From IMG/VR virus record IMGVR_UViG_3300013286_000627, positions 1-61,005 of that record: a stretch of 61,005 bases of DNA; one strand, 5' to 3'. This DNA comes from a virus (taxonomy: Duplodnaviria > Caudoviricetes). The translations under genes and the position numbers were made by a program. The notes beneath the pieces were generated by a model that worked only from the letters and a program-made list of their open reading frames with translations, made no database searches and had not been told where the DNA came from. Each line of letters opens with the position of its first letter. The first letter of the stretch is position 1. Of this stretch, positions 2,250-6,742 are shown one piece after another.

Positions 2250-2413
2250 AGATTAAATTTGATAAAGACACAATGCCCGATGCATTGTATAATGTACTAT
2301 TACAGCATTTTGTAAACGAAGCAGTTGGCCTAGGTGTAGAAGTAAACAAGTTTACCGAATTTAACAATTGGGTAATCGAGTGTGAAATCAATGTTAAGGA
2401 AGCGGTACATTAA
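2246..2413 (+). CDS. Small hypothetical protein (55 aa)
   Basis: GGAG SD; ATGA and TAATG translational coupling on the two sides. Confidence 0.65.
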   Translation: MKIKFDKDTMPDALYNVLLQHFVNEAVGLGVEVNKFTEFNNWVIECEINVKEAVH

Positions 2414-2877
2414 TGCCTAAATGTTATCAATTGGTCGGAGTGCCTGGTTCTGGTAAAAGTACCTGGGTAGCTAATCAAGATTGGGCAGGCGACTGTGCGT
2501 ATATCAGCACCGATGTCTATGTTGAAAAATTTGCCAAAGATATGGGCAAAACCTACAGTGAAGTTTTTACCGAGGTCATGCTTGAATGTGTTAATCTAAT
2601 GGCAGGCGATGTTGTCAAAGCTCGAGAAGCAGGTCGAGACATCATCTGGGATCAAACCAGTACCACCGTAACAAGTCGTCTGCGTAAATTTAACATGTTA
2701 CCTGACTATGAACATATTGCTGTGGTATTTGAAACACCGTCGAGGCTCGAATTAAAACGTCGATTAGCCAGCCGTCCAGGAAAAGAAATTCCGGATGCTG
2801 TAATAGAAGGAATGTTGGCTAGTTTTGAAATGCCCTCAGAAGAAGAAGGGTTTAAGGAAATTTGGAATGCCATTTGA
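2413..2877 (+). CDS. P-loop kinase, polynucleotide-kinase (AAA_33)-like
   Basis: GVPGSGKST Walker A, ISTD, IIWDQT, RLASR lid. Confidence 0.8.
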   Translation: MPKCYQLVGVPGSGKSTWVANQDWAGDCAYISTDVYVEKFAKDMGKTYSEVFTEVMLECVNLMAGDVVKAREAGRDIIWDQTSTTVTSRLRKFNMLPDYEHIAVVFETPSRLELKRRLASRPGKEIPDAVIEGMLASFEMPSEEEGFKEIWNAI

Positions 2878-2902
2878 CAAAATGGTAAAACCATGTTATA
2901 AT
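2874..2902 (+). promoter_or_regulatory. sigma70-type promoter
   Basis: TTGACA-N17-TATAAT. Confidence 0.85.
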
Positions 2903-2926
2903 TATTTTAAATGAAAGGAGAGATGT

Positions 2927-3529
2927 ATGCCTAGTGTATTTTTAGTCAGCGACACGCACTTCGGTCACATGGGGGTATGTCGCTTCACACGTAACGATGG
3001 CGTTACAAAACTTCGTCCATGGGACAGTTCAGAGGAAATGGACGAAGCTATGGTCAAGGCTTGGAACGAAAGAGTCAAGCCAACAGATAAGGTCTACCAT
3101 TTAGGTGACGTTGTTATTAACCGCAAGGCTTTAGGAATCATGCGCCGCTTAAACGGTGACAAGGTGTTAATCCGTGGTAACCATGATATCTTTAAGGACA
3201 CGGATTATCGTGAACACTTTAGAGAATTACGAGCATACCATGTTATGAATGGACTTATTTTAAGTCATATTCCTGTCCACGAAGCAAGCCTTGGCCGTTT
3301 TGGTTGTAACATACACGGACACTTACACGCCAACAGAGTTATGAAGGCGAGAGGTGTTGATGCCCGAACTGGAGAAATTTTATACAGCGATGAGATTGAT
3401 CCTAGGTATCACTGTGTTTGTGTTGAAACTACAGATTTTGCTCCAATACTCTTTGAAGATGTTATCAAACGGATTGAAGCAGAGGGAGGCACAGTGGGTT
3501 TCAAATCCGGGAACGGTCCAACAATGTAA
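2927..3529 (+). CDS. Calcineurin-like metallophosphoesterase
   Basis: DTHFGH, GD, GNHD, HGHLH motifs; AGGAG SD. Confidence 0.9.
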   Translation: MPSVFLVSDTHFGHMGVCRFTRNDGVTKLRPWDSSEEMDEAMVKAWNERVKPTDKVYHLGDVVINRKALGIMRRLNGDKVLIRGNHDIFKDTDYREHFRELRAYHVMNGLILSHIPVHEASLGRFGCNIHGHLHANRVMKARGVDARTGEILYSDEIDPRYHCVCVETTDFAPILFEDVIKRIEAEGGTVGFKSGNGPTM

Positions 3530-3536
3530 AAAACAG

Positions 3537-3565
3537 TTGACAGATCTGCAAAACTGTCGTATAAT
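3537..3565 (+). promoter_or_regulatory. sigma70-type promoter of the DUF2828/Ro-like operon
   Basis: TTGACA-N17-TATAAT. Confidence 0.9.
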
Positions 3566-3577
3566 AGTTACTTATTT

Positions 3578-3630
3578 AGGATGCTTCCAGCAATTTTTAT
3601 ACTTTTCTTATAGTAAAAAAAAGCATCCTG
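3578..3630 (+). promoter_or_regulatory. 5'-UTR RNA element A (stem + CAGCAA), copy of the downstream ncRNA motif
   Basis: AGGATGCTT-C-CAGCAA...AAGCATCCTG. Confidence 0.65.
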
Positions 3631-3654
3631 TCATTTTAACGAAAGGAGAAAGAG

Positions 3655-5046
3655 ATGACTACATTCGCTGAAGCAGTTAAGTCTACCCCAGAGGTAGCTC
3701 GTACCGAAAACGGTATGAAGGCAAAAGCTCATTCGGGCAATGCTCTTGTAGACCTGTTCTACAAGATTGGTGCCAGCCGCGGTAAGTCTGTAACCGCAGA
3801 CTTCGAAAAGGCTTTCCAAGAAGACAGTGACCTAGCAATGAAGATTGCATTTTGGTCACGTGATGTTCGTGGTGGTGCCGGTGAACGTCAGCTCTTTCGT
3901 GATGTCCTAGTGCATCTGGAAAAGTTGCATCCAGCAACACTGGAATCAGTTCTTCCTTTCGTGAGCGAGTTCGGCCGTTGGGACGACTTGCTGGTGTTCA
4001 AGACTGAAAAGTTCAAGCACATGGCATATACCTTAATCGGTAATGCACTGCGTGAGCGCAACGGTCTGTGTGCCAAGTGGATGCCTCGTCAAGGACCAAT
4101 TGCGGTTGAAATCCGCAACTTCTATGGTATGACTCCAAAGTTCTACCGTAAGAGTTTGGTTGCGTTGACTAATGTTGTTGAAAGCAAGATGTGTGCAAAG
4201 GACTGGGATTCTATCGAATTCGGTAAGTTGCCATCGCTGGCTTCGGCTCGTTACAACAAGGCATTTGCCAAGAACGCCAAGACATCATACGAAGCTTACA
4301 AGGCTCGGTTGACTGCTGGTACAGACAAGGTAAACGCCAGTGCTGTTTACCCATACGATGTCATCAAGACCTTGCGGCATGGTGGCGATGGTGTAGTTGC
4401 AGATGCTCAATGGGCAAGCCTGCCAAACTACATCGGCAATGCTAGTGTCATGCCTCTGGTTGACGTTAGCGGTTCGATGCAATGTGCAGTTGGTGGAAAC
4501 GCCAATTTGGAATGTATCGACATTGCCTTGTCGTTGGGTCTGTATTGTGCTGACAAGAACACAGGTGTATTCAAGGATACATTCTTGACTTTTAGTGCAA
4601 AGCCAAAGGCACAAGTTGTTAAGGGAACTTTGAGCCAGAAGATGGCACAAATGAACTCTAGTGACTGGGGCATGAACACCGACCTACATGCGGCGTTTGA
4701 AGAAATTCTACGTATCGCTGTTAAGGGTAGTGTGTCGGAAGACAACATGCCAAAGACTTTGCTGATCTTGTCTGACATGCAATTTGACGCTTGCGTCAAG
4801 CACGATGACTCTGCTATGCAGATGATCAAGCGTAAGTATAAGGATGCAGGATACGAAGTACCAAATGTGGTTTTCTGGAACTTAAACTCCAAGGACAATG
4901 TCCCTGTTAAGTTCGACAAGCAAGGTACCGCATTGGTTAGCGGGTTTAGTCCTGCAGTTATGAAAGGTGTCCTATCGGGTACTGACATGACTCCATATGG
5001 TATCATGCTGGCCACTGTTGATGTAGATCGCTACAGCGTTCTATAA
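3655..5046 (+). CDS. DUF2828-type helical + vWA protein (Ro60/TROVE-like)
   Basis: RDVRGGAGER, GRWDDL, AKWMPR N-terminal motifs; vWA MIDAS DVSGSM and LILSDMQFD; FWNL. Confidence 0.8.
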   Translation: MTTFAEAVKSTPEVARTENGMKAKAHSGNALVDLFYKIGASRGKSVTADFEKAFQEDSDLAMKIAFWSRDVRGGAGERQLFRDVLVHLEKLHPATLESVLPFVSEFGRWDDLLVFKTEKFKHMAYTLIGNALRERNGLCAKWMPRQGPIAVEIRNFYGMTPKFYRKSLVALTNVVESKMCAKDWDSIEFGKLPSLASARYNKAFAKNAKTSYEAYKARLTAGTDKVNASAVYPYDVIKTLRHGGDGVVADAQWASLPNYIGNASVMPLVDVSGSMQCAVGGNANLECIDIALSLGLYCADKNTGVFKDTFLTFSAKPKAQVVKGTLSQKMAQMNSSDWGMNTDLHAAFEEILRIAVKGSVSEDNMPKTLLILSDMQFDACVKHDDSAMQMIKRKYKDAGYEVPNVVFWNLNSKDNVPVKFDKQGTALVSGFSPAVMKGVLSGTDMTPYGIMLATVDVDRYSVL

Positions 5047-5049
5047 ATA
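5042..5049 (+). promoter_or_regulatory. T4-like late promoter upstream of the ncRNAs
   Basis: TATAAATA 8 nt before RNA element B. Confidence 0.55.
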
Positions 5050-5057
5050 GTGTTGTA

Positions 5058-5212
5058 AGGCTAGGTTCAGCAAAATTCAATAACATTAATTGCTTGTATC
5101 TATGTCAATAGCTGAAGCCGAAAGGCTTTGAAGGTTACGGGCATATATGGATATAAGATAGGTGTGTTTCGATATTGACACCGATATAAACTCAAAGTAG
5201 ACAACTAGCCTG
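5058..5212 (+). ncRNA. Y-RNA-like structured RNA B
   Basis: AGGCTAG/CTAGCCT closing stem + CAGCAA; 13-bp CTTGTATCTATGT/ATATGGATATAAG helix; AAGCC-GAAA-GGCTT hairpin. Confidence 0.7.
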
Positions 5213-5220
5213 TTATACAA

Positions 5221-5473
5221 AGGATGACTACAGCAGTATTAAACTACTCAAGCTAACGCTATAGAAAGTGGTTGTGAAACACAGTAGCAATACTGTACTG
5301 GGAAACCAGACGCAGAAGGAATAGATGACAGTATGGAAAGACATACTATGTTGCTAGTAGCAGACACAATTACTAGATAGGCAACGTGAATCGTTGATAG
5401 GGTCGCAGTAACTGAACCGGCATACAGGGGACAGGGCGACCAGAAAATAAAATATATGGTTACAATCATCCTG
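5221..5473 (+). ncRNA. Y-RNA-like multibranched structured RNA C
   Basis: AGGATGA/TCATCCT closing stem + CAGCAG; hairpins ACAGTA-GCAA-TACTGT, CTGG-GAAA-CCAG, AGTATG/CATACT, GGTCGC/GCGACC. Confidence 0.75.
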
Positions 5474-5477
5474 CTAG

Positions 5478-5504
5478 AATAGGACCTTCGGGTCCTATTT
5501 TTTT
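5478..5504 (+). terminator. Rho-independent terminator
   Basis: AATAGGACC-TTCG-GGTCCTATT followed by a T-tract. Confidence 0.92.
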
Positions 5505-5597
5505 GGCTGTGCCTTCAGATGACCCTATAAATATACATTGTACCAGTAAATTTAAAGGCGAAAAATTAGGAATCAGTTTGAGATTTAAAGAATAAAT

Positions 5598-5672
5598 CGG
5601 TCCTTATTTCAATGGATAGAATACAGGTTTCCGAAGCCTGTGATAGAGGTTCGATTCCTCTAGGACCGACCA
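5598..5672 (+). tRNA. tRNA-Arg (CCG)
   Basis: CGGTCCT/AGGACCG acceptor; CAGGT-TTCCGAA-GCCTG; GGTTCGATTCC; CCA. Confidence 0.92.
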
Positions 5673-5684
5673 TTTACTCAAGAC

Positions 5685-5713
5685 TTGATTTCTCTATACT
5701 AAAAAAGTATAAT
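5685..5713 (+). promoter_or_regulatory. sigma70-type promoter
   Basis: TTGATT-N17-TATAAT. Confidence 0.7.
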
Positions 5714-5722
5714 TACTGTTAT

Positions 5723-6742
5723 ATGACAACATTACACATTCTATCAAGTCCCTACAGCCCAGTACACGTAAAAAATAGAATGGATCCGTTTTCCATCTCT
5801 ACAATTAAGATGATTAACTACATGACCCAAATGGGGTGGGATTGTATTCATTACGATATTGTAGGCAGTGAGGTAAGTTGTCCCACTGTACGATGCTTGG
5901 CGGAAATAGATCCTGATAAAAATGTTAATATTAACAAATATAATCAACGTGCAGGACAGGCAATTGCATCACGTAAAAAACCCGGAGACATAATTTTATG
6001 TATGTACGGTATTGAGAATCAGGGGGCTGTCAACTGCAATAAAGATCTCAAAGCAATTGAACCAGGAATTGGTTATACAACTGCTGCTGTATTTTCTGAT
6101 TACAGAGTATTCACTTCATATGCACAGATGCATATGTTTTACGGTGAAAGAAAAATGGAACCAAATCCCAGTTGGTTTGATGCTGTTATACCTAATGGTA
6201 TTACTGCTAGCGAATTTGATTACACAGAAAATAAAGATGATTATTTTCTTTACTTTGGTAGAGTAGTTGCTGAAAAAGGATTGGATATTGCAATTCAGGC
6301 AACTAAAGTCGCTGGTAAAAAATTAATAATTGCGGGCAGTGGAGAATTATCTGATATCGGATATAAAACAATTCCCGAACATGTAGAAGTGGCGGGTCTG
6401 TGTAATGCAGATCAAAGACGTGAATTAATGTCCAAGGCTTGTGCTATCATAGGACCGACATACTATGTTGAACCGTTTGGCAATATGGTAGTAGAAGGTT
6501 ACTTCTCCGGCACTCCGGCAATTACAACGGACTGGGGCGGCTTTACAGAAACAGTAGTACAAGGCAAGACAGGTTTCCGTTGTAGAGAGTTTAGAGAGTT
6601 TGTTAATGCCATTAACAACATAGATTCAATCAATCCCAAAGATTGCTACGATTGGGCCATGACAAATTATGAAGATTCAGTAGTGCATAAAAAGCTGGAT
6701 CAATATTTCAAAAAAATTGCACAATCAAATTTTTATAGATAA
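5723..6742 (+). CDS. GT-B (GT4-like) glycosyltransferase
   Basis: YFGRVVAEKG and EPFGNMVVEG motifs; start moved past the tRNA-Arg. Confidence 0.9.
   Translation: MTTLHILSSPYSPVHVKNRMDPFSISTIKMINYMTQMGWDCIHYDIVGSEVSCPTVRCLAEIDPDKNVNINKYNQRAGQAIASRKKPGDIILCMYGIENQGAVNCNKDLKAIEPGIGYTTAAVFSDYRVFTSYAQMHMFYGERKMEPNPSWFDAVIPNGITASEFDYTENKDDYFLYFGRVVAEKGLDIAIQATKVAGKKLIIAGSGELSDIGYKTIPEHVEVAGLCNADQRRELMSKACAIIGPTYYVEPFGNMVVEGYFSGTPAITTDWGGFTETVVQGKTGFRCREFREFVNAINNIDSINPKDCYDWAMTNYEDSVVHKKLDQYFKKIAQSNFYR

Follow-up and report, generated by a model that had tools for sequence, protein, structure and literature searches.

What is the compact, hairpin-rich stretch of 253 nucleotides that follows a predicted Ro60-like gene in the virus record IMGVR_UViG_3300013286_000627? 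The stretch, hereafter RNA C, lies at positions 5221–5473 (+) of a 61,005-nucleotide window, the whole stretch of DNA analysed, which is a fragment of an uncultivated virus record with a CheckV completeness of 17%. It lies in the 550-nt gap between an open reading frame at 3655–5046 (+) and a tRNA-Arg gene at 5598–5672 (+). A preliminary description made from the sequence alone had listed a dense set of stable hairpins here, judged them unlikely to arise by chance in an AT-rich genome, and suggested tertiary folding and an insert unrelated to that of a neighbouring RNA B. We find that this observation holds, and that RNA C resembles an oversized relative of Y RNAs, with a handle shared with its neighbours and a pseudoknotted domain at the place where known bacterial Y RNAs have a tRNA-like part.

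A conserved pseudoknotted RNA fold

Every listed element is present: ACAGTA-GCAA-TACTGT at 5281–5296, CTGG-GAAA-CCAG at 5298–5309, AGTATG-GAAAGA-CATACT at 5330–5347, GTTGC/GCAAC at 5350–5354/5381–5385 with an inner TAGTA/TACTA helix at 5355–5359/5371–5375, and GGTCGC/GCGACC at 5401–5406/5436–5441. The ends of the stretch also pair. The minimum free energy is −66.2 kcal/mol, compared with −49.3 ± 4.3 kcal/mol for dinucleotide shuffles (z = −3.96), with 0 of 200 shuffles folding as well, whereas the minus strand of 5205–5480 gives a weaker z of −2.27. The elements of the fold, all on the plus strand, are as follows, with pairing statistics from an alignment of 22 homologues described below.

5221–5227, 5′ strand of the terminal stem P1 (AGGATGA), pairing with TCATCCT at 5466–5472; 97% of cells paired, 4 of 7 pairs with double changes
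5230–5236, conserved 5′ bulge wCAGCAr (here ACAGCAG), a proposed protein-recognition motif
5235–5248, hairpin P2, AGTA/TACT; the weakest helix, with 63% of cells paired and 3 of 4 pairs with double changes
5259–5324, P4 (CTAT 5259–5262/ATAG 5321–5324) and P5 (GTG 5268–5270/CGC 5311–5313), both paired in 100% of cells, P4 with CTAT/ATAG, CCAT/ATGG and CAGT/ACTG variants, enclosing a variable array of GNRA-capped hairpins (P5b 5283–5294, P5c 5298–5309)
5330–5347, hairpin P6, AGTATG/CATACT with conserved loop GAAAGA; 4 of 5 modelled pairs with double changes
5355–5375, hairpin P7a, TAGTA/TACTA with a conserved loop containing CAGA; 5 of 5 pairs with double changes
5382–5396, hairpin P8, CAACG/CGTTG with loop TGAAT
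5401–5441, P9, GGTCGC/GCGACC, whose loop donates a pseudoknot strand; 99% of cells paired, 5 of 6 pairs with double changes
5408–5412, pseudoknot 5′ strand GTAAC in the P9 loop, pairing with GTTAC at 5459–5463, 2 nt before the P1 3′ strand
5442–5450, conserved A-rich strand AGAAAATAA between P9 and the pseudoknot 3′ strand, near-invariant in two of the alignments (A2 and A3)

The neighbouring protein retrieved 55 related loci from viral contigs and 80 from metagenome contigs, some of them the same contigs in both collections (individual loci are given L numbers below), and 11 close relatives carry a homologue of RNA C at 68–90% DNA identity. On a plain MAFFT alignment of these 11, a structure of 11 nested helices plus one pseudoknot is paired in 84.5% of cells, compared with 29–45% when the 3′ partners are slid by 1–3 columns; 28 of 54 pairs show changes on both sides and none of 500 shuffles reaches the observed covariation score. 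A covariance model built from this alignment and run over 75 sources gave 27 rows at 44.5–250 bits, all on the strand of the gene, with the next best hit at 26.6 bits. After removal of duplicate contigs, 22 sequences were aligned, with 90.1% of cells paired compared with 29–43% in slid controls and 38 of 51 pairs showing compensatory change; that alignment is fitted to the model, which favours the nested helices. The pseudoknot, which the preliminary description had missed, was not part of the model and is still paired in 86% of cells, with the variants GTAAC/GTTAC, GTATC/GATAC, GGAGA/TCTCC, GAGGC/GCCTC, GGAAC/GTTCC, GGATAC/GTATCC and GAAACTG/CAGTTTC. The number of hairpins between P4 and P5 differs among homologues, L062 and L065 carrying a further insertion there, whereas the loops of P6, P7a and P8 are near-invariant.

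One listed helix needs correction. The outer GTTGC/GCAAC helix is poorly supported, being paired in 67 of 94 cells, mismatched in 12 of the 20 sequences with letters at position 131–164 (A-A in 11) and showing few compensatory types, and it competes with the better-supported hairpin P8, paired in 82 of 95 cells with several pair types. The claim that the insert is unrelated to that of RNA B holds: the RNA C model scores RNA B at only 21.6 bits, against 240.5 bits for RNA C itself.

Absence of covariation, or coding by a 73-aa minus-strand ORF, had been named in advance as grounds for rejecting the RNA; the covariation is as given above, and the ORF (5248–5469), although ATG-initiated and open in the window, has no Pfam match and is not conserved. 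In the 22 homologues the longest stop-free stretch changes strand and frame, and the closest relative, L007 (90% identical DNA), has 3–5 stops in every minus frame and at most 34 stop-free codons.

Searches for other identities gave little. A blastn search with 5040–5600 against 50,697 phage records returned no match, and no Rfam ribozyme or riboswitch family matched at E up to 10. A weak match to poplar-1 RNA (RF03041) spans the junction of RNAs B and C (5112–5291) at 18.3 bits, against a gathering score of 110.5 (E = 0.13); no match was found at E up to 5 in 10 homologous loci, and we treat it as chance. The covariance model run on the four whole isolate genomes ekra, Ci1, A511 and Snenia found no C-type RNA, the single hit scoring 10.3 bits, and a search of the window for a complement of the conserved P7a loop found only the loop itself.

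The surrounding unit and its predicted Ro60-like protein

RNA C is the last of three RNAs in one promoter-to-terminator unit. The features of the unit and its neighbours, all on the plus strand, are as follows.

2413–3529, upstream neighbours, an AAA_33 P-loop kinase (2413–2877) and a calcineurin-like phosphoesterase (2927–3529)
3537–3565, sigma-70-type promoter TTGACA-17-TATAAT, with 12 of 12 consensus matches, the best of 7 promoter-like sites in 3400–5800
3578–3630, RNA A, a minimal 53-nt handle RNA in the 5′ leader, 24 nt before the start codon, with homologous copies upstream of the gene in most close relatives
3655–5046, the Ro60-like gene (463 aa; Pfam DUF2828 and DUF7788; PHROG 850 ‘RNA-binding protein’)
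5058–5212, RNA B, a handle RNA with a different insert, present without RNA C in L002, L005 and L006
5221–5473, RNA C
5480–5504, intrinsic terminator TAGGACC-TTCG-GGTCCTA plus seven T, read from the sequence and kept by homologues with changed stems, although a consensus scan did not list it
5598–5672, tRNA-Arg(CCG), the next gene, one of seven tRNA genes within the first 6 kb

The protein has no Pfam TROVE hit at E up to 0.01, a phmmer search against PDB sequences at E up to 10 gave only weak integrin vWA hits and no Ro60, and NCBIfam gave nothing, so that the likeness to Ro60 is by predicted fold only. An AlphaFold2 model from 22 homologues (pLDDT 77.4, pTM 0.70) has as its top 13 PDB matches in Foldseek exclusively Ro60 proteins over the full length (E = 8e-9 to 1.4e-4, TM 0.41–0.58), including Thermus phage phiLo Ro60 (E = 8e-9, TM 0.58), D. 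radiodurans Rsr, and Xenopus and human Ro60, followed only by isolated vWA domains. The predicted model thus has the HEAT-repeat ring plus vWA domain of Ro60, and the MIDAS residues D270, S272 and S274 are invariant in 22 homologues. Homologues occur in 711 of 50,697 phage records, including Felixounavirus coliphages, Listeria A511/P100, Campylobacter, Vibrio, Staphylococcus and Enterococcus phages, and mycobacteriophages; they are usually annotated ‘hypothetical’ or ‘RNA-binding protein’ and, in the mycobacteriophages, ‘Ro-like RNA binding protein’.

A handle shared with other phage RNAs

RNAs A, B and C begin AGGnTnnnTnCAGCAr and end with the complement of the first seven bases followed by G, a 5′ pattern that occurs three times in the 61-kb window, only in this unit, compared with 0.09 expected. 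We searched for this handle as a 7-bp stem, two bases, N-C-[ACG]-GCA-[AG], an insert, the complementary strand and G. Within 1.2 kb of the homologous gene the pattern occurs 156 times on the gene strand, 7 times on the other strand and 7 times in shuffled sequence, and 78 of 84 distinct loci have at least one copy. Over all loci there are 174 distinct elements with 67 different stems, whose first five pairs are nearly fixed (A-U, G-C, G-C, W-W, U-A) and whose 3′ side before the stem is A-rich. The three bulge positions left free by the pattern are A in 88% after the first C, A in 93% at the last position, and A in 47% or T in 40% just before the motif, giving the consensus wCAGCAA. Because the elements were picked by a pattern that demands a 7-bp stem, their family-wide pairing and covariation are partly by construction, and the independent controls are the strand and shuffle counts. 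Element lengths cluster at about 50–65 nt (minimal hairpins such as RNA A), 87–137 nt, 153–170 nt (B-type) and 185–315 nt (C-type and others).

The same handle lies beside the homologous gene in three isolate phages: coliphage ekra has four copies between tRNA genes, at 4716–4783, 4883–4938, 5362–5432 and 5452–5577, Listeria phage A511 three copies just upstream of the gene and mycobacteriophage Snenia three copies just downstream, none of them annotated in those records. Some handle RNAs enclose tRNA-like inserts, with Rfam tRNA hits inside the handles of L023, L029 and L049. The ekra element at 5452–5577 has a T arm before a D arm, the YrlA order, and the Snenia element at 4545–4672 overlaps an Rfam YrlA match of 39.3 bits (E = 1.4e-5), the best in the handle family but below the gathering score of 69, which aligns the T, acceptor-like and D arms.

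RNA C is dispensable at the level of the locus, as close relatives have B and C, B only (L002, L005, L006) or neither (L018). In more distant phages with 54–58% protein identity, a C-type RNA lies upstream of the gene (L070 at 134.7 bits, L037 at 100.8, L021 at 45.5 and L069 at 44.5).

Relation to Y RNAs and alternative readings

With fair confidence, we read RNA C as a Y-RNA-like non-coding RNA of a freshwater phage, transcribed with RNA A, the Ro60-like gene and RNA B from one promoter and ending at one terminator. In this view, P1 and the adjacent 5′ bulge would dock on the Ro60-like ring encoded between the RNAs, as the terminal stem of a Y RNA docks on Ro60, and the remaining ~230 nt, nine further helices and a pseudoknot that brings a helix next to P1, would form the module specific to this RNA. 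In minimal members the upper helix follows the bulge and runs directly into the 3′ strand of P1, whereas in RNA C the helix next to P1 is made by the pseudoknot, so that the P1–bulge–helix geometry looks preserved, a reading that is itself inference. By analogy with Ro60–Y RNA–PNPase complexes (PMC4201824, PMC12135203), the module most likely tethers the ring to, or gates it against, another RNA-processing factor of host or phage, and different modules (A, B, C, tRNA-like) would give the same protein different partners. The analysis establishes the RNA fold, the handle family, the linkage to the gene and the Ro60-like predicted fold of the protein; that the protein binds the handle, that RNA C is processed into a separate RNA and that it acts as a tether or gate are inferences. 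The kinase and phosphoesterase, which may be an RNA end-healing pair, and the tRNA cluster suggest RNA repair or surveillance during infection, again by inference.

The interpretation offered in the preliminary description is thus partly supported. RNA C is a real, multibranched, conserved structured RNA, and RNAs B and C are the same scaffold, for which no identity had been given, with unrelated inserts, making ‘adaptors with different effector modules’ a reasonable analogy to known Y RNA tethers (PMC4201824). Tertiary contacts of the GNRA loops, binding to a host RNase and a decoy role were not shown.

Like bacterial Y RNAs YrlA/YrlB (RF02553, ‘Y RNA-like’; Chen et al. 2014, PMC4201824), often two or more per locus and co-transcribed, RNA C is encoded near and on the strand of a Ro60-type gene by predicted fold, 175 nt downstream of it; its ends pair into a stem next to a conserved single-stranded motif, and a variable module sits in the middle. 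RNA C nonetheless lacks four of the six YrlA features examined, and we do not class it as a member of YrlA. The bacterial motif GNCGAAN0-1G, which defines the Ro60 site in known Y RNAs, is absent, as are the CGAA motif (PMC12135203) and the animal GGUCCGA; there is no T or D arm, with no tRNA match at E up to 10 and none found by ARAGORN; Rfam YrlA and Y_RNA give no hit at E up to 10; and its length is about twice the stated 80–130 nt. The proposed partner belongs to the DUF2828/DUF7788 branch rather than to Pfam TROVE proteins, and the 2014 survey, which covered 22 phages, started from TROVE-annotated genomes.

Thermus phage phiLo encodes a Ro60-type ring with two adjacent Y-like RNAs, Yrl1 and Yrl2, and a complex with host PNPase is reported (PMC12135203; PDB 9KOP, 9L5Y). 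Its Ro60 is the best structural match to the protein of the window, at 16–17% sequence identity in the fold alignment, but Yrl1/2 were identified by a CGAA motif and are small stem–bulge–stem RNAs. In metazoan Y RNAs the terminal stem made by the 5′ and 3′ ends likewise carries the Ro60 site and a variable loop or module recruits other proteins, but there is no sequence relation, a GGUCCGA-type bulged helix standing against the CAGCAA bulge.

In Felixounavirus Bas63, the Ro60-like gene gp130 lies directly upstream of a tRNA array, the layout seen in Felixounavirus ekra, whose homologue is 38.7% identical to the protein of the window; that gp130 is this orthologue is inferred from genus and synteny. 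In the PhageMaP preprint (PMC11482910), gp130 alone, expressed from a plasmid, countered the Ppl defence for T7, so at least that activity may not need phage Y-like RNAs. The authors identified no RNA and guessed that some ‘tRNA genes’ are Y RNAs, whereas in ekra the four handle RNAs lie between the tRNA genes and not among them.

Among the alternatives, the best surviving, though unlikely, is an autonomous structured RNA (protein scaffold, aptamer or ribozyme) whose terminal stem and CAGCAA motif serve processing or closure or bind some other protein, the linkage to the gene being functional but not through direct binding. The module is large, pseudoknotted and rich in GNRA loops, with several near-invariant loops and junctions, like independently folding RNAs; handle RNAs also sit among tRNA genes that are processed from long precursors, and gp130 alone had anti-defence activity. 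However, the handle is kept beside the gene and on its strand, and its first five pairs and bulge are conserved in sequence across phages of three bacterial phyla, which fits a protein site better than a mere closing stem. Slightly less likely is a cis-acting 3′ UTR element of the Ro60-like mRNA, a stabiliser against 3′ exonucleases or an autoregulatory operator, as RNA C directly precedes the terminator of the same unit and RNA A sits where an operator would sit. Against this, C-type RNAs lie upstream of the gene in L070, L037, L021 and L069, handle RNAs occur up to about 1 kb away between tRNA genes, close relatives lack RNA C or both B and C without losing the gene, and a 250-nt, ten-helix pseudoknotted fold is far more than a stabiliser needs. 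Protein coding and chance hairpins, the latter favoured by nothing beyond the low G+C context, are contradicted by the conservation, folding and covariation results above.

A bolder and doubtful possibility is that phages with DUF2828-type Ro60-like proteins run a plug-in RNA system, in which one conserved handle docks on the ring and interchangeable modules (minimal hairpins, tRNA mimics, B-type and the 230-nt pseudoknotted C-type) are swapped between phages to aim the ring at different host RNA-decay or defence factors. The module of RNA C would then be a new autonomous fold that binds a specific host or phage protein, or a small ligand, and the family would be a major class of phage anti-defence or RNA-repair ribonucleoproteins. 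We found no description of such a class, of RNAs for DUF2828-type proteins or of the CAGCAA handle in the part of the literature searched. Ro60–Y RNA particles are known in animals and some bacteria, and this locus gives the phage Ro60-like proteins candidate RNA partners with a simple, searchable signature, unannotated in the isolate genomes of ekra, A511 and Snenia. It also suggests that the Y RNA idea of one handle with variable modules extends to a 253-nt pseudoknotted RNA, and the occurrence of the handle in tractable phages, with a reported anti-defence phenotype for a Felixounavirus Ro60-like gene, makes its function accessible to direct test.

Of 24 sequencing runs listed, contigs of four RNA-library runs from four studies cover relatives of the unit, including RNA C, at 88% likeness or more. 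As contigs cannot show transcription, ends, strand or level, and DNA can be present in such libraries, this shows presence in those libraries only, and a higher word depth over 5280–5419 in three runs is not taken as evidence. Examples are one contig across 4135–5505 and one across 5221–5454.

Features flanking the Ro60-like gene

Beyond the RNA of interest, RNA C, five stretches of the window were noted, as follows.
3578–3630: RNA A, a minimal hairpin carrying the shared handle (terminal stem plus 5′ bulge)
5058–5212: RNA B, a handle RNA with a different insert
2413–3529: AAA_33 P-loop kinase and calcineurin-like phosphoesterase
392–589 and 1721–1880: a gap between tRNA-Ala and tRNA-Met, and an unannotated stretch after tRNA-Gly

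RNA A begins a few bases after the promoter, which matches the consensus at 12 of 12 positions, and lies 24 nt before the start codon of the Ro60-like gene, a placement in which it could double as an autoregulatory operator for the protein. The kinase and the phosphoesterase, located directly upstream of the promoter of the unit, are a possible RNA end-healing pair. The stretch after tRNA-Gly (1721–1880) folds moderately well, with a z-score of −2.39 and 4 of 200 shuffles as good, and ends in a strong hairpin, whereas the 198-nt gap between tRNA-Ala and tRNA-Met (392–589) does not (z +1.55).

Shared sub-modules and further handle RNAs

RNA B carries a hairpin with a conserved, T-loop-like loop, TTTCGATATT, whose stem covaries between relatives, as well as a GAAA-capped element, CTGrAGCC-GAAA-GGCTTTGAAGG. 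A near-identical element appears as an insertion inside the RNA C homologues of two related loci, L062 and L065, which suggests that sub-modules are shuffled between handle RNAs.

Additional handle RNAs lie 1–2 kb from the Ro60-like gene, within tRNA clusters, in four related loci.
L008: 202–258
L010: 254–310
L046: five copies
L037: 1851–2419

Several of these gave weak matches to the Rfam family Dicty_Class_I_RNA (24.8–30.5 bits, below the gathering score of 41.5), which we take as a chance likeness of short stem RNAs.

Loci of isolate phages

The loci of the homologous gene in four isolate phages contain the following features.
Escherichia phage ekra, 4716–4783, 4883–4938, 5362–5432 and 5452–5577: four unannotated handle RNAs
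Mycobacterium phage Snenia, 4484–4741: three handle RNAs
Citrobacter phage Ci1, about 4880–5125: two long tRNA-like sequences
Listeria phage A511, 1507–2058: a sub-threshold match to ROOL RNA

In ekra, the four handle RNAs lie between annotated tRNA genes downstream of the Ro60-like gene, and the last of them has a T arm before a D arm, as in YrlA. In Snenia, the three handle RNAs fill the unannotated gap after the gene annotated as ‘Ro-like RNA binding protein’, and the middle one gives an Rfam YrlA match that is below threshold. In Ci1, the two tRNA-like sequences follow the homologous gene, and one is annotated ‘tRNA-Pseudo’; one has a large insertion containing CTACAGCAAAAC where the anticodon arm would be, but a search of this locus for the 7-bp handle pattern itself found no copy. 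In A511, the ROOL match scores 87.5 bits against a gathering score of 99.1 (E = 1.2e-16) and lies approximately 1 kb upstream of the Ro60-like gene, with an RtcB-type ‘tRNA splicing ligase’ annotated 1.3 kb downstream.
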